Origin: a virus
Taxonomy: Duplodnaviria > Heunggongvirae > Uroviricota > Caudoviricetes
Reading direction: 5' to 3' (one strand)
Length of the DNA: 64,000 nucleotides
Virus record (IMG/VR): IMGVR_UViG_3300045988_150439
The notes beneath the pieces were generated by a model. The model made no database searches. It saw only the letters and a program-made list of their open reading frames with translations, and was not told the DNA's origin. This document shows, one piece after another, positions 4,891 through 63,431 of the stretch. The position numbers and the translations under genes were made by a program. The first letter of the stretch is position 1. Each line of letters starts with the position of its first letter.

Positions 4891-4915
4891 TATATGAATT
4901 AAAGGATTGATACTA

Positions 4916-6610
4916 ATGGAATCGATAGAATCATTTCTAAAAAATTTTCTAGTTTCAGATCATCGGGTTGCCGTCATAAAAGGAGATTGGGGCGTTGGTA
5001 AAACTCATTATTGGAATAGTTTTTATACTAAGCATTCTGAAGGATTAGATTTTAATGCATATTCGTATGTTTCTTTGTTTGGGGTTAACTCTATTGGTGA
5101 TATTAAAAAAACTCTTTATCATTGTGCCACACCAATTAATGAAAAGAAATATAAAGAACTAATTTTATCTGAAACGGATCGAACTATGATTCGTTATAGA
5201 AATGGGTTTTGGGGATGGTTGAAATACAACTCCTTGTCAAAATTTTTAATACATTTCGGAAAGAACGATTTTTTTGGGTTCAAAACAGATAACCTGCTGT
5301 CATCTCTTGAGTATAAATTTGTTAATAATTATTTGGTTTGTATTGATGATGTTGAAAGAAAAGGTAATTCGCTAGAAGTTAAAGAAATTATGGGGGTAAT
5401 TGATGAATTAGCAAGAAGAAAAGGTTGCAAAGTTGTTCTAATTTTAAATGAAGATAATTTACATGATGAAACTGCAAAAAAACAGTTTTTAGAGTACAGA
5501 GAAAAAGTAATTGATGTCGAAATAAAATACGATCCTACGCCTGAGAAGAACTTACGTAAAGTTTTTTATGAAACTGATTCTGATTTTCTTTTGTTAAAAG
5601 TCTTAGCAAATGACTTAGGCATTAAAAATATCCGTATATTAAATAAAATAAAAACATCTCTGGTTAATCTTAGGAATGAGCTAAGCTTGGCAGAGGATAA
5701 GGTTAGAGAAAGTTTTATCAATAGATTGGTTCTGTTTTCAGTGGTTTACTATTCTGGTGTTCCAGGTGTTGATTATGCCTTGTTTAAAGAATCAATTAAA
5801 AACATACATGTATTTGATTACATGTTAGATGATAAAAAGGATGATTCTGTATATTCATTTATTAATAGTCTTGATATTATTTATGAACGAGCGGAAATTG
5901 CTTTCGATGATGACATAGATTTTTATCTCAAGAATGGTTATCTTTCTACTGAAAGCAATATTCGAGGTATAATAGAAGAAAAAAATAAACAATATAAAGA
6001 ACACAAGGCTTTATGTGAGGTTAACAATGTTTGGGATATTTTTAGTGACTCATTCAAGGACAATGAATCTGAGTTTATTTCTAAGATAAAATGTGTAATT
6101 AACGACAATCTTTCACACATACCTGTTGCTCACTTCATAGGCTTGATTGATATCTTAAATAGATTGTTGATTGATTGTGATAGTTATATAGAGGCATATG
6201 CAGATGCCTTTGTTAGCCAAGATGATGCTTATACTGCTTTTCGGAATTTGTATGTAGAGATATTTGGTAACGAAAAGTTAGGTCTGCTAATTCAAAAAAA
6301 ATTGATGGATAAGAAGCCTGAAGAGACTAATTTAGAGAATGTTTTATACAAAATAATTGAAGGCAAATTTAATCATAGTGACATAGCATATCTTAACAGT
6401 TTCTCTGAAGATGATTATTTAAAGTGGATATTATCCCGCAATCAGGATGCTTTGGATTTAGTGAGAAAGGGGTTGCTCAGATTCAAAAGTATGCAAGAAC
6501 TAACAGAAGAACAGCAAAAAATCACGAATAAAGCAATAGGTGCATTAACGAAACTGGCCTCTAGATCAAGTCTTAACAAACTACGTGTGAGCAGATTGCT
6601 TAATAATTAA
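4916..6610 (+). CDS. KAP-family P-loop NTPase
   Basis: ORF 4907..6610; ATG 4916 follows AAAGGA. Walker A GDWGVGKTHYW near N-terminus, DDVER Walker B-like; coding region clearly AT-rich relative to neighbours. Confidence 0.6.
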   Translation: MESIESFLKNFLVSDHRVAVIKGDWGVGKTHYWNSFYTKHSEGLDFNAYSYVSLFGVNSIGDIKKTLYHCATPINEKKYKELILSETDRTMIRYRNGFWGWLKYNSLSKFLIHFGKNDFFGFKTDNLLSSLEYKFVNNYLVCIDDVERKGNSLEVKEIMGVIDELARRKGCKVVLILNEDNLHDETAKKQFLEYREKVIDVEIKYDPTPEKNLRKVFYETDSDFLLLKVLANDLGIKNIRILNKIKTSLVNLRNELSLAEDKVRESFINRLVLFSVVYYSGVPGVDYALFKESIKNIHVFDYMLDDKKDDSVYSFINSLDIIYERAEIAFDDDIDFYLKNGYLSTESNIRGIIEEKNKQYKEHKALCEVNNVWDIFSDSFKDNESEFISKIKCVINDNLSHIPVAHFIGLIDILNRLLIDCDSYIEAYADAFVSQDDAYTAFRNLYVEIFGNEKLGLLIQKKLMDKKPEETNLENVLYKIIEGKFNHSDIAYLNSFSEDDYLKWILSRNQDALDLVRKGLLRFKSMQELTEEQQKITNKAIGALTKLASRSSLNKLRVSRLLNN

Positions 6611-15212: not shown

Positions 15213-16424
15213 TCAAAAAAGTTTTATAAATTCATAATTCTGGTCAATTAAGGATTCAATACACACCATGCAAAAATCTACATCGTTAAAATCAGGTGTG
15301 TAATATTCATCCTCATAACATTCATTTAGACCTTCAATCAATTTTTCTTTAAAAACTCCCCACGTTTCAATATGAACCATTTCCATATAAGGCGCATGTG
15401 TATGTACTTGCAATACATCCCAGGTGTCTATAACCTCGATCCGCGGCTTGCAATTAATTTTTTCTAAATATGCCCTCCCAGAATTGTAAATTTTCGACAT
15501 TGATGCCCCAAAACCTGATGGTTGGTAATGAGTGTAAATGTCATAAATTTTTTGTCCTATTCTAGGGAGTTGAGAAGCATTGGATATTTGTGGCGAATGA
15601 AAGTATCGCTCTATGGAAGAAAACGCAGAAACATTAACTAGAGTAATCGTATATGGTGCTAAAGTTCTCTCGTTCAAATTTCTACATAAAATAGCAAACC
15701 CATGGCTATTAGTCTTTTCACCGTCTGAGGACATTTTTGCCATGCTGGCTTTAATAACATTCAATTTCGAATGTAAACGAGAAGTGGAAGTCGGTTGATT
15801 ATACATTTCATCATCATACAAACATATATGAAACCCGCCAAGATGACGAAATGAGAACTTGAGTGCTTCTTCCGCAATAACTAATTTATTAATATCTAAA
15901 GGAGTAAGTGATACGTTACCTTGTAAATCATAGCAAGGTTCTAAACATAGAAAGTTTTTCTTCTGCCACACAATCATATTAAAAATAAAGTGTCTAACCA
16001 AAGGTGGCCAGTCAGGTGATATAAGTACATTGGTAATATCTCCATCAGACAAGTATGACAAGTAACTTTTTAGTTCCGCAGCATATGCCACTAGCTCAGT
16101 TCCAGCTTCCCTTGTTGGTGTTGAAAAATTTTTTAACTCAATAAGAACTAAGGATTCATTCTCTGTTGAATAAGCAACGACATCAGGTCTTAATATCTCA
16201 GATTTTGTTGCTGAGATATTTTCATCATCTGTCATTAAATGTAACAATGTTATATTCTTTAAACAAAACTGATAACTCTCCTTAATTTTTTTCTCTTCGG
16301 GTCTTTTCGGATTAAATTCATTTAATTTATCAATATTGATGATTGAATTATATAATCCATCTTGATCAGATAATTTGTCAATTATCCAATTTTGCATTTC
16401 CTTTTCGCTTAAAAATATTGACAC
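15213..16424 (-). CDS. 403-aa protein with PD-(D/E)xK-like nuclease motif; distal gene of AT-rich two-gene cassette (AbiGii position)
   Basis: GTG start; PDVVAY...SLVLIELK resembles a D..ExK restriction-endonuclease-fold motif; very AT-rich; 26 nt from upstream gene. Confidence 0.45.
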   Translation of the reverse strand: MSIFLSEKEMQNWIIDKLSDQDGLYNSIINIDKLNEFNPKRPEEKKIKESYQFCLKNITLLHLMTDDENISATKSEILRPDVVAYSTENESLVLIELKNFSTPTREAGTELVAYAAELKSYLSYLSDGDITNVLISPDWPPLVRHFIFNMIVWQKKNFLCLEPCYDLQGNVSLTPLDINKLVIAEEALKFSFRHLGGFHICLYDDEMYNQPTSTSRLHSKLNVIKASMAKMSSDGEKTNSHGFAILCRNLNERTLAPYTITLVNVSAFSSIERYFHSPQISNASQLPRIGQKIYDIYTHYQPSGFGASMSKIYNSGRAYLEKINCKPRIEVIDTWDVLQVHTHAPYMEMVHIETWGVFKEKLIEGLNECYEDEYYTPDFNDVDFCMVCIESLIDQNYEFIKLF

Positions 16425-16450
16425 TAATTAGGCTCCCGTTAAACCAAAAA

Positions 16451-17272
16451 TTAAAAATCTTGCTTTACTTTATCCATAGTCAGAATTTTGCTAATAATTG
16501 AAGATTCAAATCCATCTAAACCTGAGAGAAAGTTAATTAGCTTTTGGATATGTTGTTCTTTAGGTATAAGTATATATTTTATATCATTGAACTCAAAATC
16601 AATGCCAAACTTTGAAAATTTTGAGCTAATTTTTGCTTTGTCATCAGAAGTGATAACACGCTCCAAACTCAGACTAGGCCATAAATCACCAATAAAAGGA
16701 GCTGGCACATAACGCCACTCTTTCTCGTCTGCATATATATAATTCTCTATTGTTTTATTATCTTTTCGCTCTAGCTTGCCTCTGTAATTTTTCATATAAC
16801 GCAGTAAATTATATAGATCAGAATATTCTGCTTTCAATTTCTCAAACTCTATTCTGTTTTTGGTATCTAAATTTCCTCTAGCCTTCCAAAGCGGCACCAA
16901 CTTTTTTTTAATAAGTCGAATTCTGGCATTGTATTTAGAAAATATTTCACTGCTCTTATTCATATATAGAACTGGGTGTAGACCTTTCTTTTCCGCCCAA
17001 GACTTAGTTAGCCCAAGACCGAATTCCCCATATTTTCCGCTATGATCTCTGATTTGTGATAGTTTTATGTCACAAAACGATACCATTGGTACTGCAAACC
17101 TCCTGCGTCCCCCGACTCCTCTTATTTCCTCGCGAGCAAGAAATGGTTTAAAATATTTCTCAGCCAATATGCTATAGAAAGCATCTTCGTTTTTTGTAAA
17201 ATGAAACAACGTGGTTGGATGAAGACTATAAACAGATTCAACATTCGCATCAGGATTTTCAAGGATAGTCAT
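16451..17272 (-). CDS. AbiGi-like protein (candidate abortive-infection component)
   Basis: ORF 16451..17317; probable ATG 17272 follows AAGGTG. N-terminal LFHFTKNEDAFYSIL...PMVSFCDIKL...YGEFGLGL pattern resembles what I recall of AbiGi proteins; AT-rich. Confidence 0.4.
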   Translation of the reverse strand: MTILENPDANVESVYSLHPTTLFHFTKNEDAFYSILAEKYFKPFLAREEIRGVGGRRRFAVPMVSFCDIKLSQIRDHSGKYGEFGLGLTKSWAEKKGLHPVLYMNKSSEIFSKYNARIRLIKKKLVPLWKARGNLDTKNRIEFEKLKAEYSDLYNLLRYMKNYRGKLERKDNKTIENYIYADEKEWRYVPAPFIGDLWPSLSLERVITSDDKAKISSKFSKFGIDFEFNDIKYILIPKEQHIQKLINFLSGLDGFESSIISKILTMDKVKQDF

Positions 17273-17561
17273 TTTACACCTTGTGGAAAGCCAGTTTAGT
17301 TCTGTAAATAGTATCACACGACAGGCGGCTATTCTTCTATCAATAAAGGATAGGTAAGCACTTACTTTTTACGCGCGTTAATTGTATAGTTCTTTCGGAT
17401 ACTCACTTGAAAGGACTCAATATGGGAAATAAATGTAAACATGCGCGTCGCGCATCTCGTCAGGTGCAGAAGTCAAATCCATACATTCACGAGCACTACC
17501 ACCTCAGCTCTTTCACTAACCGCTACACGTTCCCCAGCGAAGCGCATAACGAGGCAAGGCA

Positions 17562-24771: not shown

Positions 24772-27700
24772 ATGAAGGCACTGATGGTTCGAACTGACTT
24801 CTCACTTGGGGAGTCGGCTCTAAAAGCAGAAAACGCGGTGAAGATTGCCAGAGAAGCTGGCTACACCGCTGTAATTTCAGCAGATAGCATGAATATTGCA
24901 AGTGTTATTCCACTACAACGTGCCGCTGGTGACGACATGGCGGTTATTTGTGGTGTGAAACTAAACATTGTTGATGATCCCACATACGAGCACCGGGCTA
25001 AACTTGCTAAAGAATCTATGAGATGTATGGAATCATTAGAGCGGGGACGCAACTACTCGTTTACCGCTCTAATTAAAAATGAGCAAGGATATCGCGACAT
25101 CTGCGAACTAATGACGGCGGCCAACACACGAGAACAGTTCTACTTTGTACCGCGTCTCTCGCTCGAACAGTTGGTTTCTACATATGCCAAAGGCAACATC
25201 ATCCTGCTTACTTCCGACATCGGTAGCGTGTTCCAACGCAACGATTTTGCAAAAATCATAAGCACACTGATTACAGCGGGTGGAAAAGACAACTTCTATA
25301 GTGTGGTTTATCCGCACCCTACCCCATTCTACGACCAGATTAACGTCCGGGCGATGAAAGTCGCCAGCGCACTGAAAATAGAGCCAGTAGCGTTTTATCC
25401 CGCTTATTACGAATCGATCGACGATGCAGACATTAAAGACATTGCGCACATGGTTACGAACAACATCAAAATCGACCAGCCGCATCGTCTGCGTATCCCC
25501 CACCAGCGAGATAACGCCATCAATGGTCGTCGCCATCTCCTTGAGGCGCTTAAAGCCTTCTCCGTTCGCATGGATGTGCCGGTAACAGCTGCAATGGCCT
25601 CAACAACGCAGGACTCCATTATCGATGCCTGCACATGGCGCTGGCATGAATTGCCACCAGCACTGCCCAAGATGGCAGACGACGAACCTGCAACGCTGAT
25701 GAAACTGGCTGTTGAAGGGCTGCGTAAACGTCTTACCACAAAAGAGTTTGGATACACACCACCTGCTTCTGAGAACAGGGTTTATGTTGAGCGGCTAAAG
25801 TACGAAATGGACACGCTGACTCGCCTGGGATTCTGTGGTTACTTCCTGATGGTACGCGATCTGATGAATCATAGTCGTGAAACTGGCATTCCCGTTGGGC
25901 CTGGTCGTGGTTCCTCTGCCGGTTCTCTGGTGGCGTGGTGCATAGGCATAACCAACGTCGACCCAATCCGTCACGGTCTTCTGTTTGAGCGTTTCATCAA
26001 CCCTGAGCGTCTCGACTTGCCGGATGCGGACTTGGACTTCAGCCAGGCACGTCGCCATGAGGTGATCGAGTATCTGAATGAACGCTACGGCGAAGATTAC
26101 GTTGCAGGCATTCCGAACTTCACCTATCTGGGCGCGGCATCTGCGCTGCGTGACACTGCACGTATTTACGGTGTCGATGCTGCGGATATGGCGGTATCCA
26201 AAGAGTTCAAGAATATGGAGGACGACAGCCTGTCTCTGGAAGAGCTGCGCGAGCAACTGGCCAGCCTGGACAAATACGCCACGAAAAACCCGGAAGCGTT
26301 CAAAGCGGCGTGTAAGCTGCAAAGCCTGATGCGTGGTTTTGGTCGTCACGCTGCGGGGATGATCGTCGCTGGCGTTCCATTAGTAGAGCGCACGCCCGTC
26401 GAGCTGCGTGGCAATGCTCGATGTATTGCGTTCGATAAACGTTACTGCGAGGCGATGGGGCTGATTAAGTTGGACGTTCTCGGTCTGGCAACACTCGATC
26501 TTCTGGATAGCGCGAAACGCTACATCAAAGAGAGCACCGGTGAAGACATCAATCTCGACGCTATCCCACTGGACGATCGCAAGGTTCTGGATGGGTTCGC
26601 TGCAGGGTACACGCAGGGCGTATTCCAGCTGGAGTCCGGCCCCATGCGTAAGCTGCTTAAAGATCTGGGCGGTGGCATCGAGCCAATGAGTTTCAAAACC
26701 GTTGTCGCAACTACCGCCCTCTTCCGACCGGGACCGATTCAATCCGGCATGTTGGATGACTATGTTTCCGTTGCGAAAGGATTTATGACGCCTACATCAC
26801 TACATCCTGTCTTGGATGAACTGACCTCTGAAACAAATGGAGTGATTCTCTATCAGGAACAAACGATGAACGCAACAAGGCTTCTTGCTGGTTTCACAAT
26901 GGCTGAGGCGGATGGTGTGCGTTCAGCAATCGGTAAGAAGAACATGGAAAAGATGAGGAGCATGGGTGAGAAATTTGTCATTCAGGCTCAAGCTGGGTGG
27001 ATCGACGTAGAGCTTGAAAATGGCGCAATACAACGGATTCATCGCGCAGAACATTTTAAATGCGAGGACGGTACTCTGAGGACAGTTGAAGAGGCGTTGG
27101 AGCATGGAGTGAAGCTGCCAATGCCAGTTGTGCGCGTTACAACGTCACATCCGGGTCTGTCTGAGACGAAGGCAAAAGAGATATGGACTGCATTTGAGAA
27201 AAACGGAGCCTATCAGTTCAATAAATCACACTCCGTTGCTTATTCTTTAATCAGTTATCAGTCTATGTGGCTAAAGACGCACTACCCTGCTGAGTTCTTC
27301 GCAGCTGCGCTCACCATTCTGGGCGAGGATAAGCATCAGGGGCTGGTGAAGGATGCGCTGACCTATGGCATTCGCGTATTGCCACCAGACGTTAATGTGT
27401 CATCTAACCGAATTGAGATCCGCACACTCGAAGACGGCAGTCAGGCACTGTATGCGCCATTCTCTGCTGTGAAAGGCTGTTCTGAAAATGGTTGTCAGGC
27501 AATTATGCGTGCGCGTGAGAAAGTTGGTGGCAAATTCGAGTCAGTGGCACAATTCGATGAAGCGGTCGAGAAGCGTGCATGTAACAGTCGTGTACGCGAG
27601 TCGCTTCATAAAGTAGGGGCTTTTGCGTCAATTGAGCCAGGCAGTCTGCCAGCAACTGATCCTGAACGACTGCGCGACCAGGCTGAGCTGATGGGCAATC

Positions 27701-33092: not shown

Positions 33093-35432
33093 ATGGCAAA
33101 AGGAAAATCCGCACTGGCACTTGCTCTGAAAAAGAAAATCGGTAGCAACGACGAAATTCAGAAAGTAACTCATTGGATTGACACAGGCTTTCCTCCGTTA
33201 AACAAAGCTATTTCCGGTCGTTACGATGGCGGTTTCCCATGTGGTCGTATCGTAGAAGTATTCGGGCCACCAAGCGCGGGGAAATGTGTTACCGCAGACA
33301 CCATGCTGCTGACGGAGCGTGGAATGGTAACAGTGAAAGAGTTGTTTGAGATTGAAGGGTACAAAGCGACATGCACTACTCGCGATGTAGAGCATAACGT
33401 TGGACTCATCAATGAAAATGGCGTGATAGAGAAGACCTCACACCTGACATGGAACAACCGTCGCAAATTCAAGCGTATTAAGCTGGCATCAGGCGGTTAT
33501 ATCGAGGCTACGTTCCGTCACCCAATCCGTGTGGTTGACGACTTAGGTAATGTCGTCTGGCGACATGCTGAAAAAATCAGTGTAGGCGACACGATTCCTT
33601 CAATGGTTGGCACACATCAATTCGGCGATCAGCACCTGGATGCCAATATCGCAAAACTGATGGGCTATTTAATTGCTGACGGATACGTGGCCTCTGAAAA
33701 TTCAGTGAATTTTTCTAACACAGATCCTTTCATCAAGGATGAGTACTACCGCCTCATTTCGCTGGTATCAGACAAGATGCCAGTTACGAGAAAACATAAC
33801 GGCTCGGAAGACCATGTGCTGTTTAGCAAAGAGGTGCGTTCGCTGCTTTTTAAAGAATATGGTCTGGAGTATGAGAAAGCTGCTGGCAAGCAGGTTCCGT
33901 TGAGTGTGCGTCGCGCCAATAGCGAGGCTCAAATTGCATTCCTTCGCGGCTACTTTGAGCTGGAATGCCACGTCAATGATGGTCGCTGCATTGAGGTTGT
34001 GAGCGCGAGTGGGCTGCTGCTACAGCAAATTCGCCTCATGCTCCTGAATCTGGGGATTACGTCAACTATCTCTGAAAAACACGTCGCGGGTTATGAAAAT
34101 ACATATTACCGGCTGTCATTCAGTGGCTCTAATTACGACCTTTTTCTGTCAACGATTGGTTTCGAATCTCCGGCACGTTTATCAGTGGCAACCAAACGGG
34201 ACATTGGTTTTGACCGCACTTACTCAGGCTATGTTCCGCACATCAGCGGCTTAGTGAAATCACTCTACGAGTCGCTCACCAAGACCACCCGTGAAGACTA
34301 CGCTCTGGTAGACCACGTTATTGGCCGCGGCGATCGTGTCGGAATAGACAAACTGCGAGAAATCTATGTCTCCTTCATTGGCAGAAAGAATCGTTTTAAC
34401 GAGCATCTGTTTGCACAACTGGCAGCGGTAATTGGCTCTAACTTGTTCTACGACGAAGTCGTGGCTATTGAGGAAGGTGAAGCACCAACGTTCGACGTAG
34501 CGATGCCGGAAACACACTCTTTCTGGTCTAACGGGATTATCAGCCACAACACATTCCTTGCAACAGCAGCGATGATCTCCGCACAGAAACAAGATGGTCT
34601 GGCGGTATTCCTCGATCATGAGAACAGTTTTGACGTTGGCCTGGCTGTAGCCAATGGCCTGAACGCAGATGAGGATGACGGTCAGTGGGTATACAAGCAG
34701 CCAGATACCTTCGAAGACTCTGTAGAGTTGATCGGCACAATACTTAAATTGGTTCGTGATGAAGAGCTTATCCCCGAATCAGCACCTATCTGTATCGTGG
34801 CTGACTCTCTTGCGTCTATGGTTCCGAACTCCAAAGCCGAGAAGTTCGAAAAGATGGCTGAAGGCACTGCCAAAGACAAAGATCAGCTAAACATGAACGA
34901 CAATACGGCACTGGCTCGTGCGACGAGTGCGAACTTCCCTACTCTGGCTTTGTGGGCACGCAAATACAACGCCTGCATCATCTTCTTGAATCAGGTTCGC
35001 ACAAAAATCGGTGTAATGTTTGGCGACCCTACTACGTCGCCAGGTGGAGATTCACCGAAGTTCTACGCTTCTGTACGTATCCGTCTTGGTGCATCGGTGA
35101 TGAAGGATGGTAAAGAGAAGATCGGCCAGGACGTAGGCGCAGAATGCATCAAAAACAAAGTTGCACCACCGTATGGCAAATGCACCTGGAAATTCTACTT
35201 CGATCCTACTCGTGGCCTCGACGTTATCGAATCGCTCGTCGAGTACATGCTGGAAGAAGGATACCTGCCAAAGAACGCCAGCGGGCGAGTTGAAATTGGT
35301 GACAAGAAATACACCAAATCGCAGATCGTCGAGATGTATCGGGAGAAGCCATTAGCAGAAATCATTGCTGCGTTACAGACGATAGATGACCGACGAGAGA
35401 AGACATCACCAACAGAAGAACTAGAAGATTAA
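33093..35432 (+). CDS. recA: RecA-family recombinase interrupted by an intein
   Basis: 779 aa; exteins (64 + 293 aa) match RecA: P-loop GPPSAGK|T, IIFLNQVRTKIGVMFGDPTTSPGGDSPKFYASVRIRLG. Confidence 0.8.
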   Translation: MAKGKSALALALKKKIGSNDEIQKVTHWIDTGFPPLNKAISGRYDGGFPCGRIVEVFGPPSAGKCVTADTMLLTERGMVTVKELFEIEGYKATCTTRDVEHNVGLINENGVIEKTSHLTWNNRRKFKRIKLASGGYIEATFRHPIRVVDDLGNVVWRHAEKISVGDTIPSMVGTHQFGDQHLDANIAKLMGYLIADGYVASENSVNFSNTDPFIKDEYYRLISLVSDKMPVTRKHNGSEDHVLFSKEVRSLLFKEYGLEYEKAAGKQVPLSVRRANSEAQIAFLRGYFELECHVNDGRCIEVVSASGLLLQQIRLMLLNLGITSTISEKHVAGYENTYYRLSFSGSNYDLFLSTIGFESPARLSVATKRDIGFDRTYSGYVPHISGLVKSLYESLTKTTREDYALVDHVIGRGDRVGIDKLREIYVSFIGRKNRFNEHLFAQLAAVIGSNLFYDEVVAIEEGEAPTFDVAMPETHSFWSNGIISHNTFLATAAMISAQKQDGLAVFLDHENSFDVGLAVANGLNADEDDGQWVYKQPDTFEDSVELIGTILKLVRDEELIPESAPICIVADSLASMVPNSKAEKFEKMAEGTAKDKDQLNMNDNTALARATSANFPTLALWARKYNACIIFLNQVRTKIGVMFGDPTTSPGGDSPKFYASVRIRLGASVMKDGKEKIGQDVGAECIKNKVAPPYGKCTWKFYFDPTRGLDVIESLVEYMLEEGYLPKNASGRVEIGDKKYTKSQIVEMYREKPLAEIIAALQTIDDRREKTSPTEELED
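33285..34550 (+). mobile_element. intein with LAGLIDADG homing-endonuclease domain (422 aa) inside recA
   Basis: Starts with Cys (CVTADTM), ends His-Asn before Thr +1; dodecapeptide motifs LMGYLIADGYV and FLRGYFELECHV. Confidence 0.75.
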
Positions 35433-37447: not shown

Positions 37448-37627
37448 ATGAAGATTTTTATTGAATACTTGTTACTCATCGTGTCAATAGCTTTTGTCAT
37501 CGACTGCATTTTCACTGGTGTCATTCGTAAAGTCTTTTCCCCGGTGAACGACGTAGTCATAAACGCTTTGGCTATCGTGCTCGTATTTAATTCAGCATTT
37601 GATGTAATCAAAGAGGTGGCAGCATGA
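37448..37627 (+). CDS. small membrane protein (59 aa)
   Basis: Below track cutoff; two hydrophobic helices; stop overlaps next start (ATGA). Confidence 0.35.
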   Translation: MKIFIEYLLLIVSIAFVIDCIFTGVIRKVFSPVNDVVINALAIVLVFNSAFDVIKEVAA

Positions 37628-37959
37628 AGGCCATCCCATTCGCGCTGTTGTTCCTTTCTTCGATCGTTGTGGCCGACACCACTGTTTATCAGTGTGAAAT
37701 GTCTGTAGCCGACGTTAAGAATGGCTCTCTTACCGACGTCATAAAAGCACCATATGGAGCGATGGTCGTAGACAGCGGCGACCAGTTCTATGTTGTGCGT
37801 GACGATCGAGTATTGTCATCCCCATATCTCACAAACCGTAATGGCAAATTAACCGGCGTCGGAGAAGACCACTTCGTATACAACAAATACAAGGGCTTCT
37901 ATGGCGTTCACGCTTCTCAGCAAAGCTACCTTTTCGATGACTGCAAGGAGGTTGGATAA
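37624..37959 (+). CDS. secreted protein with signal peptide
   Basis: N-terminal MKAIPFALLFLSSIVVA signal-like sequence; 111 aa. Confidence 0.45.
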   Translation: MKAIPFALLFLSSIVVADTTVYQCEMSVADVKNGSLTDVIKAPYGAMVVDSGDQFYVVRDDRVLSSPYLTNRNGKLTGVGEDHFVYNKYKGFYGVHASQQSYLFDDCKEVG

Positions 37960-38171
37960 TGGCATTAACACTGGCAGGTCTGGAAATCGAGAAAACAAGC
38001 GGATACTGGCGTGCTAAGGGTTTCAAGCAGCCTGGCGTTCTTGAGCGTCTGGAACGTGAAGATGGGTATATCGTCCACCAGCGGCGTGAATGGCGTATGT
38101 ACGATCCAGAAACAGGAAAACTGACTACAAAAGCCGGAACACTTTGGGGCCTGTTGAAGAAAATACACTAA
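37959..38171 (+). CDS. hypothetical protein (70 aa)
   Basis: ORF only; translationally coupled to upstream gene. Confidence 0.4.
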   Translation: MALTLAGLEIEKTSGYWRAKGFKQPGVLERLEREDGYIVHQRREWRMYDPETGKLTTKAGTLWGLLKKIH

Positions 38172-38660
38172 TAGCACCAACCACTGCGGTGAGTAGCCAG
38201 CTCACCGCATTCGTATCAGCTCATTATCCACTGTGGTCTGCAGTCCTCTCTTCCTACATATCTGCTAACCACTGTAGCGAGTAGACAACCTTTCATTCGT
38301 ATCAAACAACCACTATGGTGAGTATTGGAGTGAGATGTCCAGCGAGTATCCACTATGGTGAGTAAGCCTTTGCTGTTTTCAGTGGATATCCACTCGCCAC
38401 AGTGGATACGCTCAAAGATGAGGGCGACAACAACCACTATAGACAGTAAATTTTCCAAGATACCCAGTGACCACTAACCTCGCAGCCCTTGTTTCATCAG
38501 TGTTAGTGATCACTAACATTTAATTCAGTATTTGCATTCTACTGCCTACAGTGGTTATCAACAGATAACGATACTCACTATAGTGGATAGCGAATTACAG
38601 ATATAAGTAAGGCTCACTACAGTGGATAGTGAGCCTTACTACTAACTACAGTGGTTGGGC
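38170..38660. repeat. iteron array downstream of repA (incA-like)
   Basis: About 10 copies of core CCACT(A/G)T(A/G)G in both orientations, e.g. aaccactatggtgagta, atccactatggtgagta, cactatagtggatag, cactacagtggatagtgag. Confidence 0.7.
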
Positions 38661-39715
38661 TATTTGCGAGTCTTTGCCTTGCGCAACTCTTCGAGAAGCG
38701 CCAGTTCTTCTTTACTCAACATGACCATTTTGCCTTCTTTTTCGTCAGGCACAACGTCGATAATGTCATCTTGATTCTCATCTGGGAGGCTATATTCCGT
38801 CTCATCATTATCGATTTTTGTTGATATTTGTGCCTGGCGTAACTTTGGCCGCCTATAGTGGATGACGAAGTAGACCGAGTTTCCGCGCTTAACTTCCGTG
38901 TAATCGAGATATCCTATCTCTCGCAGCTGTTCCATAGCCTTTCTTACCGTCGCATTCTGAGTAATAGTGCGACTTGTCAGATTAAGTCTGGCGCGTAAAC
39001 GGGCTAGTGATATTGGTGCCGGATCAGGCGGCAAACTTTCAATAAAAGTATAAAGCGCCTGAGCGGATTCTTTTCTTGAGAGTTCGTTTATAGCCCGGAG
39101 TTGCAGAAGAACCTTTTTGTCGAACTGGTAGAGTTCGAAAATCTTGGGATCTGCTTTCAGTTCGACCGTATCGTGCTTGACACTATATTTTGCCGTTTGC
39201 ACAAGATGCGTTACGTAAAACTCATCAGAGCCTTTGCTACGGAACGAGATGGTATTTGTGGCAATACGGCTTAGCGAACTGTCCAGGCGTTTGCGTAACT
39301 TCGCTGATGACCTGGCGGTCGGAATGCCACACAGCCTTACAAACTCAACGAACGGCAGCGTGACAGTATCGCCAACGACCTTGTGTTTGGCAAACGCGTG
39401 GATTATTCCCACCCACGTTTTAAAGTCGTTATCCATATCAAGCCGAAGGCCAGAGATCCTTATGTCTTCGTACCCTTCGGCTTTTGCCAGAGACAGCTGT
39501 TTGAGTTCAGCAGAGGCATCCATAGAGACCATTTGCCCCTTTCTTCCTCTGGATGTCGATTTCAGCGTCGGAACGAAGAGGCCCAGACGCATCAAAGCAA
39601 CAGGCTGAACAGTGTTATTAGTGTTAGGAACCAACGTAACAACTTCGCCTGTCTTTTTATCTGTTTCTGAAAATGCTTCAACGATCGCTATGTTTTTATT
39701 GCCGTTTTCGCTCAT
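38660..39715 (-). CDS. repA: iteron-binding plasmid replication initiator (RepA-like)
   Basis: 351 aa minus-strand gene flanked on both sides by iteron arrays; start faces the origin-like region. Confidence 0.6.
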
Positions 39716-39759
39716 TCCAAATGTCTCTTGTTATTCGACGGCTTTGGTGGCCTTTGCTG

Positions 39760-40380
39760 ATTACAGTGGATAGTAGCACTCATCACAGCGGTTATCCTAC
39801 CGTCTATAGTGGTTTTTCTCCTCTCTATAGTGGTTGCTTTGCTCCCTATAGTGGATTATTCGCTCTCTATAGTGGATATCGATCATGTCTGAAGGCAGAT
39901 GGCACAACGGTTTGAGGTGGGCGGGGATCTTATTGGGTCTTTATGGGTCTCTTTGGTTCTCTTTGTGATCTGAATTACTGGATCGGGCCTGTGGATAAAA
40001 ATCAGAGGATTTCAAGAACAGGTAACTCTACTCTTCTGTGGATATTTAAGGACATAAGAATCATGACTAAGAGTAGAGTTTAAAATATATCTATGTATAT
40101 CAGTATGTTAATGAAGAATTAAGTCATTAAGTTATCCATAAAAGACAATGTGCTCTACTCTCTACAGTGGATATATACAGCTCTCCAGAGTGGTTGTTTT
40201 ACTCTTCATAGCGGTTATTCAGCTCTCTACAGAGGTTTCTTTGCTCTCCATAGTGGATGGCAACACCCTTTCAGACCAGTAACCGCAACGGCTAGAGGCG
40301 ATCGGGGATCTCTTTGGATCTTCTATTTGATCTTACTTGGGATCTCTTATTTGGATCTATCCAGTGGATAACTGGGATAA
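39760..40380. promoter_or_regulatory. plasmid-type replication origin
   Basis: Four 21-bp iterons CTCTCTATAGTGG (39801-39884) and five more (40157-40262); perfect DnaA box tgtggataa near 39990 plus two 1-mismatch boxes; AT-rich stretch 40060-40140; GATC clusters at 39915-39985 and 40300-40357. Confidence 0.7.
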
Positions 40381-40458
40381 GTAAAACAGGCAAATGCAGA
40401 TTAAGGTATGCCTAATGAGTTATCGTAGCATCGGCCAATAACTACTGAAAAAACGATT

Positions 40459-41103
40459 ATGGATCTAAAACGCACGCGCTGGGTTCGTCGTCTTGAGGAC
40501 GGCTCCTACACTATCGAATCAAATTCCAACCTGAATAAGCAGAAGTTACTTTGTGATATCTGCGGTATAGCGGCGAAGTGCCCGATCTACGAAACCAGAA
40601 TTAAACTTGATAAGGCTGGTGTGAACTTTCATTTGAATAGTTGTATCAGGTACGTTCCATTGCTCGCATTTCGTAAACCGATCATCGGATTGGATGCGCC
40701 CTACTTCAACACACTCCGTTCAGGAGTAACGTGGCGAGATCGTTTATCACCAGACAAGCTGATTTGCCTCGTATCCGCAGACACAGGGAAAATCATCCGT
40801 TTTGGGAAAGTAGACAAGGTTTACTCAGGCCCAGTTGACGAGATGTTGCGGAAACACAGCCGGTTTAATCACCTCTGCATGGGTGGTGAGAAAATCGAGA
40901 AGGTTGAAGAAGTGATCCGCAAATCCTACGGACACTTCCTGACCAAAGATAGCCTGCTCACTGCAATCTACATCAGACATGTAAAACGTGAGTTCGACCT
41001 TGAATACCATAGCGAAGAAGAACTGAACCTTGTCGATCCACGTCCTAAAGCTGGCGTCATAAGCATAAATGCAGCGCGTAAAAAGCCCACTGACGCGCTG
41101 TAA
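40459..41103 (+). CDS. hypothetical protein
   Basis: 214 aa ORF next to origin; Cys pairs near N-terminus. Confidence 0.45.
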   Translation: MDLKRTRWVRRLEDGSYTIESNSNLNKQKLLCDICGIAAKCPIYETRIKLDKAGVNFHLNSCIRYVPLLAFRKPIIGLDAPYFNTLRSGVTWRDRLSPDKLICLVSADTGKIIRFGKVDKVYSGPVDEMLRKHSRFNHLCMGGEKIEKVEEVIRKSYGHFLTKDSLLTAIYIRHVKREFDLEYHSEEELNLVDPRPKAGVISINAARKKPTDAL

Positions 41104-41357
41104 CCCTCCAGATCGTATATTGGCGTAGATAGAATCTACGCCCCCTCAAAATAGCTCTCATAGCGTTCTACAGTGATCCTGTCTTATTTTTAGTCATACA
41201 GACAAGCAAAGTTGCGCCACGATAAATAGGTATATACTTACTTATAAATTTTGTATATTAAGGCGCTCGTTTCATTCCTAACATACCGTTATGCATAGTT
41301 GTTTACCTTCTCATTGCTCTTAAAATTTGTATCAAAATAACCACAAAGGAAAAACAC

Positions 41358-56267: not shown

Positions 56268-56861
56268 ATGATTGCAGCCGAAAAAATCAAACAGCGAAAG
56301 CGCGACAACTCTCTTCGTGACCTCTGGAGAACACCTGATTGGCTGTTTTCTGCCATTCAACGTTATCTTGGAGTGACATTTGATGTTGACGTTGCCTGCA
56401 ACAAGGACAACGCAAAGCTGCCTAATTTCATAGGCATTGAGCGTGATGCTTTGAAATCTGAATGGGGACAGCCAGGTACAATTGCCTTCCTCAATCCACC
56501 CTACTCCAAAATCTCCCCCTGGATTGATGCTGCTATACGTGAGCAGGCTCGCGGAGTTACAACAGTGATGCTAATTCCTCAATCCCTCGATACAAAGTGG
56601 TATGAGCGTGCAACAGAGTATGCGAATGAGACGATTATTCTGTCTGGTGGCCGCGTAGCGTTTGTCGAGCCTGACGTCAATTTGGGTCAGGTAGAAGTAA
56701 ACATCAACCCCGGTGGCAGTATGCTCGTTGTTTTTCGAGGATTCTGTCAGGACGCTGGGCACTCTATAAGCAAGATCCCTTTGGACGTCATGAAAAGTCT
56801 GGGAGGGTATAATCCTGCGAATGTGATCAGGAAAAAAAGACCATCAAAGAAGGCTGCTTAG
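56268..56861 (+). CDS. DNA N6-adenine methyltransferase (phage Dam-like)
   Basis: 197 aa; FLNPPYSKI catalytic motif. Confidence 0.65.
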   Translation: MIAAEKIKQRKRDNSLRDLWRTPDWLFSAIQRYLGVTFDVDVACNKDNAKLPNFIGIERDALKSEWGQPGTIAFLNPPYSKISPWIDAAIREQARGVTTVMLIPQSLDTKWYERATEYANETIILSGGRVAFVEPDVNLGQVEVNINPGGSMLVVFRGFCQDAGHSISKIPLDVMKSLGGYNPANVIRKKRPSKKAA

Positions 56862-61745: not shown

Positions 61746-63431
61746 ATGAATACAGCCCTTTCCATCATCGACGATGCCAACTCAAACACTGCTATCGACT
61801 ATCGGCAGGAAATGAACGTCATCCACGAAATTGTGGCCGAGTGCGAGAAAGAGATCGCCTTCATGTATCAGGTACACGACTTCGTTTATGGCGACGAACG
61901 CCACAACATGATTAATCGCCTGCTGAGACTAAACCATCGACCAGATGAAGATCGCTCGCGTTTAAATCGAGGTTGGTTGGATAAAGTCGATCTGGAATGG
62001 GTGAAACAGAATATTTGGGCCGAGTACTGGAGGAAGGTCACGGACATGACTAACGTTTTGCTGATCATGCCAGCTTCCCGTCGAGATGAGTGGCGCGAGC
62101 AGTTTATAGAGGGCAAACAGGAAGTCATCAAAACTGACAGAACCGGCTACCAGATGAAGGTTAAAGAGTTCGTTGGTGTACCGGAGTTCAAAGCAGAAAC
62201 GGTCATACCCACGATGCTTAATTTGCTGAATGACAGGCACAAATATCTCTCTGAGCGCGTGTATGGCTTGTTTAAGGCGCTGAGTCCTGCGCACAAGACA
62301 AATAAGACAAACGGTTTCAGCGAGCGTCTGATAATCGCTGACTGCATTTCTGATTTCTGGCGGGACAGCGTTAGCGTGAACTATCGCAAAGAGGACTACA
62401 TCGACGATCTGCGTGTCTTGCTTCATTTCTTCGCGCACAAAGAATTTATTACCATCAACCGCACTGCTGAGGTGCTATCAGCTGCGTATCGAGCAAACGA
62501 CTGCCAGACCGGTGACTGGATTAACGTCGATGGAAATCTGATGCGCGTGAAGATGTTCAAGAACGGCAACGTTCACTTTGAAATACATCCTGACGTGGCC
62601 TGGAAGTTGAATGAGGTGCTGGCTTACAGTATGCCTGCTGCAATCCCCGCGCCATGCCGAACTGCGCCAAAAACACGGGCACCAAAGCAGTTCGGTTTAA
62701 TCCAGAAGACGATCTCCGTGCAGGTTCGCACTGCGCTTCGTGACGGGCGATTGAGCAAAGACAAAGGCGTATGGTACTTCTCTGATTCAGCTCTCCAGAA
62801 GTCGCAGGTGGAAGAGCTTGAGCGCACACTGAGCTTCATTGGCGGCGTGCAGGAGAAAAAGCACTGGCAGTTCCCGTATGACATCGGCCATACGCTAAAT
62901 ACGATTGTGGCTACCGGTTTAATACCGGATACAAAATCACACCAGTTCTACCCTACCCCACGCTTGATTGCTGAGTACGTTGCCAGAGCCACTGAATTGA
63001 AGCCTGGTGAGAAGCTGTTGGAGCCTCAAGCCGGACGTGGGGATCTTCTGGCCTATATTAACGCCGATCTGGAAGATGTTACCTGCATAGAAATCGCACC
63101 TCTCTTCGCTGATATCCTGCGTGGAAAAGGGTATACGAACACGATTTGCTGCGACTTCATAAAGTGGTCTGAGGACAACGCAGGTTATCAGTTCGACAAA
63201 ATCGTTATGAACCCGCCGTACTCGCTTGGTCGTCATAGAGAGCACACGCTGGCTGCGCTGGGGCATCTGAAAGTCGGCGGGCGTCTTGTAGCAGTATTGC
63301 CGGGCACTGCGCCAATACTGGACTGGATGACGATGGATAATTACGTTTATGCCAGAGGGAAGTCGTTTACCAACGAGTTTGAAGACACAGGGATCACAGT
63401 CAGCGTATACGTTTTCAAACGCGTTAAATGA
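61746..63431 (+). CDS. DNA methyltransferase with large N-terminal domain
   Basis: 561 aa; C-terminal FYPTPR, SAM-binding LEPQAGRGDLL, catalytic VMNPPYS (motif I before IV); N-terminal ~390 aa unassigned. Confidence 0.55.
   Translation: MNTALSIIDDANSNTAIDYRQEMNVIHEIVAECEKEIAFMYQVHDFVYGDERHNMINRLLRLNHRPDEDRSRLNRGWLDKVDLEWVKQNIWAEYWRKVTDMTNVLLIMPASRRDEWREQFIEGKQEVIKTDRTGYQMKVKEFVGVPEFKAETVIPTMLNLLNDRHKYLSERVYGLFKALSPAHKTNKTNGFSERLIIADCISDFWRDSVSVNYRKEDYIDDLRVLLHFFAHKEFITINRTAEVLSAAYRANDCQTGDWINVDGNLMRVKMFKNGNVHFEIHPDVAWKLNEVLAYSMPAAIPAPCRTAPKTRAPKQFGLIQKTISVQVRTALRDGRLSKDKGVWYFSDSALQKSQVEELERTLSFIGGVQEKKHWQFPYDIGHTLNTIVATGLIPDTKSHQFYPTPRLIAEYVARATELKPGEKLLEPQAGRGDLLAYINADLEDVTCIEIAPLFADILRGKGYTNTICCDFIKWSEDNAGYQFDKIVMNPPYSLGRHREHTLAALGHLKVGGRLVAVLPGTAPILDWMTMDNYVYARGKSFTNEFEDTGITVSVYVFKRVK

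Follow-up and report, generated by a model that had tools for sequence, protein, structure and literature searches.

Repeats on both sides of a minus-strand repA-like gene in a 64,000-nt stretch of phage DNA (the whole stretch is referred to here as the window) raise the question of whether this phage carries a plasmid replicon and, if so, which part of it serves as the origin. The first-pass annotation had described a P1-style iteron replicon at this locus, with about 10 iteron-like repeats downstream of repA and two sets of 21-bp-spaced iterons (4 + 5) upstream. We analyzed positions 38177–40371 for sequence features, their statistics, homology, and conservation (Table 1). Iterons were searched throughout the 64-kb window with a weight matrix of 19 nt, derived from the 11 units upstream of repA in 21-bp phase, at a threshold of at least 15 bits. 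All 23 iterons obtained were within 38177–40260, the best score outside this interval was 12.2 bits, and 100 first-order Markov simulations gave a mean of 0.2 and a maximum of 2 iterons by chance. The downstream array and the two upstream sets were therefore present as described, and their counts were revised to 12 and 6 + 5, respectively. The upstream iterons were in 21–23-bp phase and all on the plus strand, and the downstream array was mixed, with six iterons per strand, an arrangement typical of the P1 RepA/RepFIB family. The downstream iterons, none of which was in the training set of the matrix, scored 15.5–25 bits.

Table 1 Features of the replicon region and the methyltransferase gene in the window.
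Feature	Position	Strand	Description
Downstream iteron array	38177–38658	both	12 iterons; corresponds to P1 incA, the locus of copy control and incompatibility
Downstream inverted iterons	38177, 38224, 38265, 38306, 38346, 38430	−	ca. 41 bp spacing
Downstream iterons oriented like the origin iterons	38371, 38391, 38540, 38572, 38611, 38640	+	
Hairpin	38599–38647	−	11 nt past the repA stop; iteron 38611–38629 makes the loop and stem
repA	38660–39715	−	351-aa predicted iteron-binding initiator, Rep_3 family (WH1 + WH2), P1 RepA/RepFIB subfamily
Weak iteron-like site	38847–38865	+	inside the repA coding sequence; 13 bits; also in SSU5
Proximal iteron array	39755–39879	+	6 iterons; spacings 22, 21, 21, 21, 21
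Proximal GATC/heptamer region	39881–39984		4 GATC: 39881, 39926, 39967, 39981
Perfect DnaA box TTATCCACA	39990–39998	−	proximal module end; sole perfect box in 64 kb
Inter-module spacer	40000–40155		AT-rich in this lineage only
One-mismatch DnaA boxes in spacer	40037–40045, 40132–40140		
Promoter-like site toward repA	40111 to 40084	repA strand	TTAACA-16-TATATT; not conserved
Distal iteron array	40156–40260	+	5 iterons; spacings 23, 21, 21, 21
Distal GATC cluster	40300–40357		6 GATC in (G/T)GGATCT heptamers; spacing 7, 10, 12, 12, 13 bp
DnaA box TTATCCACT	40363–40371	−	one mismatch; distal module end
Dam-family N6-adenine methyltransferase gene	56268–56861	+	intact 197-aa ORF

The repA product matched Rep3_N (E 1.3e-10, 42.2 bits; Pfam cut-off 22.4) and Rep3_C (E 1.3e-4, 22.6 bits; Pfam cut-off 21.1). 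Both winged-helix domains were thus above the curated thresholds of the Rep_3 family (PF01051 and PF21205), confirming the repA-like gene suggested at 38660–39715. The closest characterized RepA was that of RepFIB of F (60% identity, E 5e-143), and P1 RepA shared 49% identity over 267 residues (E 5e-93); the homology to initiators of the P1 RepA/RepFIB family extended over the full core. The homologous gene is annotated as "replication protein RepA" in RefSeq plasmids, and searches of the RepA sequence against PDB chains and NCBIfam models gave no match. With this identity to P1 RepA and an order of parts like that annotated in P1, the P1-style nature of the replicon is supported by homology, beyond mere resemblance.

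Among relatives, the number of downstream iterons shifted by whole-unit indels (12 in the window and 15 in SSU5). The hairpin immediately past repA has a perfect 15-bp stem (−28.1 kcal/mol, z = −6.0 versus shuffles) and recurs, followed by a T-run, in the relatives compared (SSU5, pMT1, E. coli AH04, and a plasmid of Enterobacter). A simple terminator scan did not call this hairpin, whose T-run is poor in the window, and it is probably the repA terminator. The weak site at 38847 was rejected as a functional iteron: it sits on conserved IHYRRP codons, of which it is probably a by-product, and the homologous sequence of F is similar via the protein motif, though the F iterons differ. The palindrome GTTAGTGATCACTAAC (38502–38517) was likewise considered as a separate protein-binding site but not adopted as such; relatives show two imperfect direct copies of ACCACTAAC that resemble half-iterons. 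Rfam in E-value mode gave no match for 37500–41200, and control by an antisense RNA was therefore not indicated.

The replicon region showed 99.2% nucleotide identity over 2,361 bp to Escherichia phage Cyrano (pLF82), with the same neighboring genes, and 83% to phage SSU5. Because of these identities, the element carrying 38177–40371 is classed here as a phage-plasmid. Cyrano/pLF82 is a virion-producing plasmid present at ca. 5.5 copies per cell (PMC9928086). At 99.2–99.8% identity, the region matched Cyrano/pLF82 and dozens of E. coli plasmids typed as IncFIB, the value for the latter being 99.7%. MOB-suite typed the replicon as IncFIB, and PlasmidFinder has a type for it, IncFIB(pLF82-PhagePlasmid), a name in published use. 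Near-identity of repA and its flanks, together with SSU5-like phage genes, places the window in the IncFIB(pLF82/pHCM2) type, whose reference plasmids are ca. 100–120 kb. The region occurred in 129 of 5,426 complete E. coli genomes, on plasmids every time and never on the chromosome, and in 461 plasmids of PLSDB, 437 of which were non-mobilizable. IncFIB was the sole replicon type in the plasmid records examined individually, and Pantoea, Rahnella, Erwinia, and other genera carry this replicon type on plasmids that are not phages. Our literature search found neither experimental work on this replicon nor a description of its iterons; a 2026 heteroresistance preprint was rejected as a source, its subject being a different, CopA/IncFII-type phage-plasmid. 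Judged from its sequence, the replicon is real but ordinary and already catalogued, and it is built like the replicons of phage P1 and of RepFIB of the F plasmid.

The little-noticed twist of this otherwise known replicon is that its origin module is doubled in tandem. The upstream region consists of two origin-like modules. In each, the iterons are followed by a G+C-rich spacer, by GATC heptamers, and finally by a DnaA box, and both were placed in a four-way alignment with the origins of P1 (oriR) and F RepFIB. The textbook layout of an iteron origin with a copy-control array, as initially proposed, was thus retained, but the single origin was replaced by two tandem P1-oriR-like modules.

In the distal module (40156–40371), the GATC cluster is the densest of the window (6 in 58 bp; the second densest, 3 in 70 bp) and aligns with the annotated Dam sites of P1, i.e., the five heptamers of P1 oriR. 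All six GATC were invariant in six relatives. As in the P1 RepA/RepFIB family, the heptamers are followed by a DnaA box, here AGTGGATAA, which also occurs as one of the two DnaA boxes annotated in P1 oriR. With four more GATC in the proximal module, the dense GATC clusters reported earlier were evident. The adjacent 9-mer at 40372–40380 (TTATCCCAG) was rejected as a DnaA box since it has three mismatches. The distal array was also present in SSU5, pMT1, pHCM2, an Enterobacter plasmid, and ca. 35 further replicons and would represent the origin iterons proper. By analogy with P1, 40300–40357 would be the site of Dam/SeqA control and strand opening.

The proximal array lies 40–164 nt 5′ of the repA start codon and is the positional counterpart of P1 incC. 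Its register to the start codon was constant across many genera (58, 80, 101, 122, 143, and 164 nt), which is what an operator would show. The hexamer ATCCTA at 39794–39799 (TAGGAT on the repA strand) is the annotated −10 of P1 PrepA and was invariant in six relatives. No repA-strand promoter with at least 8/12 matches was conserved among these six relatives, and the candidates toward repA (40111 to 40084 and 39882 to 39855) were confined to the window; therefore, no repA promoter was assigned. Since no sigma-70 promoter conserved among relatives was located there, the operator role rests on position and analogy, by which the proximal array would act as the repA promoter/operator; it is possibly also part of a second origin. 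The four proximal GATC precede the box TGTGGATAA, again in the order of the family, and the middle heptamers have degenerated to GGGTCT/GGTTCT; such GATC-less middle heptamers were found in the proximal modules of all seven genera inspected. The perfect DnaA box pointed out previously is indeed the only one in the window. Its context ctGGATCGGGCCTGTGGATAAA resembles the origin end of F RepFIB, and in the relatives compared, SSU5, pMT1, and pHCM2 among them, the corresponding box is TTATACACA, with one mismatch.

Between the modules, G+C content falls to ca. 24% at 40040–40160. The spacer as a whole has 29% G+C, versus 42–45% in SSU5, pMT1, pHCM2, and two other relatives, and its identity to relatives is 63–65%, versus 82–90% for both iteron arrays. 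The AT-rich stretch that had been counted as part of the origin layout is thus present but lineage-specific, and because its AT-richness is not conserved in relatives, it is unlikely to be an obligatory unwinding element. The part of P1-type origins that opens is the GATC heptamer region. One-mismatch DnaA boxes were found as claimed, although three rather than two are located upstream of repA (the two in the spacer and that at 40363–40371). A search with the IHF consensus WATCAANNNNTTR found no site in the replicon region and only the number expected by chance in the whole window.

The double module was conserved beyond this lineage, in pMT1, pHCM2, SSU5, and ca. 35 more replicons of Enterobacterales. 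Plasmid records covering the 743-bp upstream region in full numbered 335, those of pMT1 and pHCM2 among them. A pair of distinct arrays with 21/22-bp periodicity was detected in 39 replicons, which are not phylogenetically independent, and in none of 59 control 1-kb chunks. In contrast, P1, Klebsiella pF132, and 30 GTDB loci had a single iteron array and a single GATC cluster. A single origin module directly 5′ of repA, as defined for the P1 RepA/RepFIB family, was thus absent from the window and 38 other replicons; this is a structural difference and no ground to exclude the window from the family. Each of the 39 replicons had 5–7 GATC in its distal module, together with a DnaA box mismatched at one position or none; the proximal module had 3–5 GATC and weaker boxes. 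The GATC count was higher in the distal than in the proximal module in 35 of the 39 and lower in none. In four Pantoea replicons, the proximal module was down to 1–3 iterons while the distal module was complete; that of Pantoea L044 also kept a relic box and two GATC. Pairwise identities of spacers, GATC regions, and boxes were 75–79% in every class and hence uninformative on the duplication history (one ancient event or repeated homogenization). GATC loss in the middle proximal heptamers of all genera inspected was the only hint of common descent.

The conservation pattern suggests that the distal copy is the origin core, and that the proximal copy (39755–39998) may serve chiefly as the repA operator and as an extra RepA-binding/handcuffing array that is losing its GATC heptamers. 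From the P1 mechanism summarized in PMC10999674, we infer the binding of RepA and DnaA, origin firing, and the control steps at 38177–40371 as follows. RepA monomers would bind the 19–21-bp iterons and, with host DnaA at the flanking box, would open the GATC heptamers next to the iterons so that the host replisome is loaded. Dam methylation of these heptamers and their sequestration by SeqA would restrict re-initiation, and repA would be repressed by RepA on the iterons beside its own gene. The 12-iteron downstream array would titrate RepA and pair ("handcuff") with the origin iterons, resulting in low copy number. Under this scheme, the distal copy would fire as the origin core and the proximal copy would be the repA operator and handcuffing array. 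With such a presumed split of work between the modules, 38177–40371 very probably serves to maintain the plasmid prophage of an SSU5/pLF82-type phage-plasmid, as a theta-type, iteron-controlled replicon of the P1 RepA/RepFIB family.

We tentatively extend this proposal, with low confidence, to a large clade of RepFIB/P1-type replicons with a conserved tandem origin duplication, in which the distal module is the methylation-controlled origin and the proximal module, on shedding its middle GATC heptamers, escapes sequestration by SeqA and is the repA operator and handcuffing partner. The clade would comprise the phage-plasmids SSU5, pHCM2, pMT1, and pLF82 and many plasmids of Pantoea, Rahnella, Erwinia, Kluyvera, and Xenorhabdus. 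It is conceivable, though far from assured, that the two copies split the two jobs of the single array of P1 incC. If true and absent from the older pMT1/RepFIB literature, the divided double module would add a new type of regulation to those of the iteron replicons.

Two observations run counter to a distal origin. The only perfect DnaA box of the window is in the proximal module, which abuts the AT-rich stretch, so that a naive reading favors a proximal origin, and the sole origin of single-module relatives stands at the position of the proximal module. On an alternative reading, replication starts in the proximal module, as in P1 and RepFIB, and the distal module is an auxiliary copy-control/incompatibility array like the extra iteron clusters of RK2 oriV, or a second incA. 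However, an array for control only needs no complete, invariant GATC heptamers and DnaA box, both of which the distal module keeps in 39 of 39 replicons and the proximal module loses. Furthermore, the proximal origin features are nearly gone in the four Pantoea replicons, and the perfect box and AT-richness are specific to this lineage. We therefore regard a proximal origin as rather doubtful. Alternatively, both modules could be RepA-dependent origins that fire alternatively or cooperatively, an arrangement loosely comparable to the α, β, and γ origins of R6K. In most relatives, both modules do retain 21-bp-phased iterons and GATC sites along with a DnaA box mismatched at no more than one position, and both modules of 17 replicons have at least four clustered GATC. 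The GATC heptamers are, however, critical for origin function in P1, and the middle proximal heptamers without GATC in all seven genera, as well as the natural variants with a degenerate proximal module, make two origins unlikely. That the repeats are a purely transcriptional operator array or a phage lytic origin, with plasmid maintenance by other means, is very hard to credit: the window does encode phage-type replication proteins as a complete set (DnaB-like helicase, primase, ligase, Pol III-alpha-like polymerase, and gp32-like single-strand-binding protein), and therefore a separate replication mode exists, but both the protein and the origin DNA are directly homologous to the experimentally defined P1 plasmid replicon, the same replicon type is carried by the non-phage plasmids mentioned above, and no replicon type other than IncFIB was seen in the individual plasmid records.

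The Dam-like gene noted at 56268–56861, whose product had been suggested as a possible methylase of the GATC sites, is present: its product matched Pfam Dam (PF05869, E 5e-38) and TIGR01712 (113.6 bits; cut-off 97). Specificity for GATC is predicted for the enzyme on the basis of its family and of 39% identity to genes of Stx phages that are annotated "dam". It could plausibly modify the GATC sites of the origin, but would not be required for this: all known hosts of the element have Dam, so its own methylase is unnecessary.

SSU5-type phage-plasmids are frequent in E. coli, Salmonella Typhi (pHCM2), Yersinia pestis (pMT1), Enterobacter, and Citrobacter. The replicon would keep them as low-copy plasmids and set their incompatibility, and it already serves as a typing marker in genomic surveillance. 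The base-level map (23 iterons, two origin modules, GATC heptamers, and DnaA boxes) helps annotation, mini-replicon building, and the prediction of incompatibility between phage-plasmids and ordinary plasmids with the common iteron CTCTATAGTGGWT. The conserved double origin module poses a modest, testable question in iteron-plasmid control and does not overturn current understanding.

Among named replicons, P1, which is likewise the replicon of a phage lysogenizing as a plasmid, has the same part order according to its curated annotation: the incA control array, repA, five 21-bp-phased iterons of incC, a G+C-rich spacer, GATC heptamers, and a DnaA box. The P1 oriR end ttGGATCTATCCAGTGGATAA is nearly base-for-base equal to the GATC/DnaA-box end of the distal module, and the origin end GGATCTATCCAGTGGATAA is nearly identical to that of the window. 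Iteron orientation in P1 incA is mixed as in the window, the repA-proximal copies being oriented like the origin iterons. On the other hand, the P1 iteron GATGTGTGCTGGAGGGAAA is unrelated to that of the window, and therefore a different incompatibility specificity is expected. P1 has one origin module and 9 control iterons, whereas the window has two tandem modules and 12 control iterons; P1 RepA lacks the acidic C-terminal tail (ca. 58 aa) of the RepA of the window. Unlike in P1, no par operon abuts the control array in the window, where a small ORF labeled "P1 Cra protein" in the Cyrano record is located. P1 is a myovirus, whereas the phage of the window is an SSU5-type siphovirus.

RepFIB of F/P307 (IncFIB) has repeats on both sides of repA as in the window, a related iteron core (TACAGCTTAT versus TACAGTGGAT), and in F an origin end that matches the proximal end CTGGATCGGGCCT(G/C)TGGATA. 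F has one upstream GATC cluster with a DnaA box and no second module. Cross-recognition between the iterons of F RepFIB and those of the window appears unlikely because the iterons differ enough. pMT1 (Y. pestis) and pHCM2 (S. Typhi) share ca. 81% identity with the window across the whole upstream region. Together with SSU5 and pLF82/Cyrano, they have the same replicon as the window, with 6 + 5 upstream iterons and six distal GATC common to all. The differences are confined to details: the E. coli lineage of the window has better DnaA boxes in both modules, the AT-rich spacer, and 12 downstream iterons against 15 in SSU5. In the SSU5-like phage-plasmids of Klebsiella (pF132_1 and the pKPHS1-like group), the genome position and neighboring genes are as in the window, and the GATC/DnaA end, which lies beside the 645-bp ORF, shares 79% identity with that of the window. 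Their RepA shared 46% identity in the alignment (ca. 51% by tblastn to RepA of related Klebsiella phage-plasmids), and these elements have a single origin module with a different iteron, ACCGCTGACAGCATAC, whereas the window has two modules.

A 19-nt weight matrix was trained on the 11 upstream iteron units, and both strands of the 64 kb were scanned with it. Sites scoring at least 15 bits numbered 23, all within 38177-40260, against a mean of 0.2 expected from simulated sequences of matched dinucleotide composition; the best score elsewhere was 12.2 bits. The sites fall into one array downstream of repA and two upstream arrays, proximal and distal to the gene. The first-pass annotation had recognized the downstream array and the two upstream sets, but its counts (about 10, and 4 + 5) were too low by the matrix scan, which gave 12, and 6 + 5. 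The perfect DnaA box and the dense GATC clusters that it had listed were borne out: this box is the sole perfect one in the window, and the GATC density at 40300-40357 is twice that of any other site in the window. In the polymerase gene, two weak iteron-like matches adjoin a one-mismatch DnaA box; these matches were rejected as within chance (mean of 1.27 sites of at least 12 bits per simulated window).

Coordinates of the replicon features and of other genes and sites in the window.
Feature	Coordinates	Strand	Remarks
KAP-family P-loop NTPase gene	4907-6610	+	
Two adjacent genes	15213-17317	-	288-aa and 403-aa products
Weak iteron-like matches and adjoining DnaA box in polymerase gene	25265-25316	opposite strands	12.2 and 8.4 bits
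One-mismatch DnaA box in polymerase gene	25308		TTATCCGCA
recA-like gene	33093-35432	+	779 aa, with intein
Downstream array	38177-38658	six per strand	12 iterons, 0 in training set
Partial copy of palindrome	38467-38478		GTGACCACTAAC, direct
Palindrome	38502-38517		GTTAGTGATCACTAAC, perfect, 16 bp
repA	38660-39715	-	351 aa, Rep3_N and Rep3_C domains
Acidic C-terminal extension of RepA	38660-38833	-	residues 294-351, ca. 58 aa
Proximal upstream array	39755-39879	+	6 iterons; spacings 22, 21, 21, 21, 21
GATC sites, proximal	39881-39984		four
Perfect DnaA box	39990-39998		
One-mismatch DnaA boxes	40037, 40132, 40363		
AT-rich stretch	40040-40160		G+C ca. 24%
Distal upstream array	40156-40260	+	5 iterons; spacings 23, 21, 21, 21
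GATC cluster, distal	40300-40357		six in 58 bp
Dam-family methyltransferase gene	56268-56861		197 aa
DNA methyltransferase-like gene	61746-63431	+	561 aa, DUF4942, phrog_6263

The region upstream of repA consists of two tandem P1-type modules with ca. 155 bp between them, an arrangement that the first-pass annotation had not recognized. Each module contains iterons, a G+C-rich spacer (CAACGG..GAGG), GGATCT-type heptamers, and a DnaA box. This doubling is not peculiar to the window. The 743-bp upstream region was covered to at least 80% in 335 plasmid records, including pMT1 of Yersinia pestis and pHCM2 of Salmonella Typhi (ca. 81% identity), and the upstream iterons of phage SSU5 are likewise arranged as 6 + 5. 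We surveyed 80 loci with the RepA profile in contigs from one genome per species. In 33 of them, as in the window, repA was preceded by two distinct arrays with 21/22-bp periodicity; in 28, as in P1 and the Klebsiella SSU5-like phage-plasmid pF132, a single array lay beside a GATC cluster. The detector found nothing in 59 control chunks. The iteron matrix of the window detected both arrays in nearly all loci with RepA identity of at least 62%, which span Kluyvera, Buttiauxella, Yersinia, Rahnella, Phytobacter, Erwinia, Pantoea, Franconibacter, Cedecea, and Xenorhabdus. When the window was compared with SSU5, pMT1, or E. coli AH04, the arrays and GATC regions showed 77-90% identity and the inter-module spacer only 63-65%, with a spacer G+C content of 0.29 in the window versus 0.42-0.45 in the relatives. 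Therefore, the AT-rich stretch noted in the first-pass annotation is present but does not count among the conserved origin features, since only in the window is this spacer AT-rich. Among 25 loci of large Pantoea plasmids with a single-module replicon (L066-L090), 22 had no matrix site of at least 13 bits upstream of repA and the other three had few, but the loci had 1-15 such sites downstream; the arrays on the two sides of repA may have drifted apart in sequence, or another type of array may lie downstream.

We compared the two modules in 39 double-module replicons. Each distal module contained 5-7 GATC sites and the proximal modules 3-5, the distal number being higher in 35 replicons and lower in none. 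The distal DnaA box had at most one mismatch in all 39 (perfect in 17), whereas the proximal box was perfect in 2, had one mismatch in 32, and more in 5. The middle heptamers of the proximal module in seven genera read GAACC, GACCC, GTTCC, or GGTC instead of GATCC. Of the proximal module, four Pantoea replicons retain just 1-3 iterons near repA (L044 also a relic box and two GATC sites), and all four have a complete distal module. The proximal iterons keep a fixed register from the repA start (58, 80, 101, 122, 143, and 164 nt) and occupy the position of P1 incC, the site of the P1 repA promoter; TAGGAT, annotated as the -10 element of P1 PrepA, is found 79-84 nt before the ATG, unchanged in six relatives. 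From these features, we infer that the distal module would be the origin core and that the proximal module would act mainly as the repA operator and as an extra RepA-binding or handcuffing array. Against this assignment, no conserved sigma-70 promoter was found for repA. It also has to face the facts that the perfect DnaA box of the window sits in the proximal module and that single-module relatives carry their origin at the proximal position. Both points favor the proximal module as the origin, which we nevertheless consider unlikely in view of the more complete distal GATC sites and boxes and the Pantoea reductions. That both modules, which share the same set of parts, serve as origins is quite improbable.

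A hairpin with a 15-bp perfect stem (-28 kcal/mol, z = -6) and an iteron inside lies 11 nt past the repA stop and is probably a terminator. The downstream array, the counterpart of P1 incA, differs in length between relatives through indels of whole units, each of ca. 41 bp (12 iterons in the window and 15 in SSU5; by alignment, fewer in pMT1 and more in AH04), as we would expect of a control array built of repeats. Neither an Rfam family nor an IHF consensus site was found in the region. A gap in the array holds a palindrome with GATC at its center and a partial copy of it; the relatives keep two ACCACTAAC copies and lack the palindrome. The repeats at 38467-38517 could be degenerate half-iterons or the site of another protein. 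At the opposite flank, 40359-40458, running from the distal DnaA box as far as the following gene, showed only 68-71% identity to SSU5, pMT1, and AH04, and the overlapping stretch 40289-40450 showed ca. 79% identity to Klebsiella SSU5-like plasmids with a different RepA and iteron. These identities suggest that replicon modules have been exchanged by recombination inside the conserved GATC/DnaA-box end.

The region 38100-40460 matched Escherichia phage Cyrano (phage-plasmid pLF82 of E. coli LF82) over its full length with 99.2% identity and Salmonella phage SSU5 with 83% identity. Dozens of 100-125 kb plasmids of E. coli, Shigella, E. albertii, and E. marmotae matched at 99.0-99.7%, and 437 of the 461 matching plasmids in PLSDB were non-mobilizable. 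The fetched plasmid records were typed as IncFIB by MOB-suite, with the minus-strand gene labelled 'replication protein RepA'. The region was present in 129 of 5,426 complete E. coli genomes, plasmid-borne in every case and chromosomal in none. Cyrano makes siphovirus particles and has ca. 5.5 copies per cell (PMC9928086), SSU5-like elements form the largest known phage-plasmid supergroup (PMC7969092), and IncFIB(pLF82-PhagePlasmid) is a replicon-type name in routine use in the literature. Judged by sequence, the window replicon is the same one as in pLF82/Cyrano, SSU5, pHCM2, and pMT1. As a whole, it is already known and catalogued, an ordinary finding, of which only the conserved doubling of the origin merits experiments.

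The remainder of the window is the phage half for replication and nucleotide metabolism, encoding a DnaB-like helicase, primase, ligase, a 1,172-aa polymerase, a gp32-like protein, a 5'-3' exonuclease, an intein-bearing RecA, SbcCD, ribonucleotide reductase, thymidylate synthase, and two methyltransferases. The Dam-like methylase gene proposed earlier was confirmed as an ORF of the phage Dam family, whose nearest gene-named relatives are Stx-phage genes annotated 'dam' (39% identity). Methylation of the origin GATC sites by this enzyme is a reasonable suggestion, though unproven; to our knowledge, all known hosts of the element have Dam, so the origin would not need the element's own methylase. 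The second methyltransferase-like gene is large. The recA-like product (Pfam RecA, Intein_splicing, and LAGLIDADG_3) is split by an intein with a homing-endonuclease domain and is labelled in RefSeq only as 'LAGLIDADG family homing endonuclease'. Since the SSU5 RecA-like gene at the same position is only ca. 1.08 kb, the intein appears to be specific to the window lineage. Of the adjacent gene pair at 15213-17317, the 288-aa product matched Pfam AbiGi (E 5e-25) and its neighbor had no Pfam match and was assigned to a PHROG of unknown function; they may be a phage-plasmid AbiG-type abortive-infection or toxin-antitoxin pair.

The window RepA shared 60% identity with its F-plasmid RepFIB counterpart and 49% with P1 RepA, and homology of both protein and origin places the window replicon in the P1 RepA/RepFIB family. 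The curated P1 record lists incA (nine RepA-binding iterons), repA, incC (five iterons, 21 bp apart, overlapping the repA promoter), five Dam sites, and DnaA boxes, and the window parts have the identical order and orientation. In both, the control-array iterons nearest repA share the orientation of the origin iterons, and those farther away are inverted. At the DNA level, the distal module end (40350-40385, ttGGATCTATCCAGTGGATAActgGGATAAGTaAAA) resembles P1 oriR (ttGGATCTATCCAGTGGATAAtgtGGATAAGTgAAA), and the proximal module end (CTGGATCGGGCCTGTGGATAAA) resembles F RepFIB (CTGGATCGGGCCTCTGGATATGTGGATAAA); when the two window modules, P1 oriR, and the F RepFIB origin were aligned together, all four were in register at the iterons, spacer, GGATCT heptamers, and box. 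The RepA homology, shared part order, and DNA-level likeness support the initial reading of a P1-style iteron replicon in a phage genome, which is predicted to work like P1 oriR/incA. The acidic C-terminal extension of RepA, whose sole Pfam match (T4_y05I_C) was sub-threshold, is absent from P1 RepA and partly common to the F RepFIB and Klebsiella initiators. Unlike that of P1, the control array has no adjoining par operon; its neighbor is a 70-aa ORF named 'P1 Cra protein' in the Cyrano record. Compared with P1 and F, the window replicon has its own iteron sequence, a longer control array, an acidic RepA tail, and a doubled origin module, where F has a single GATC cluster and a single DnaA box.
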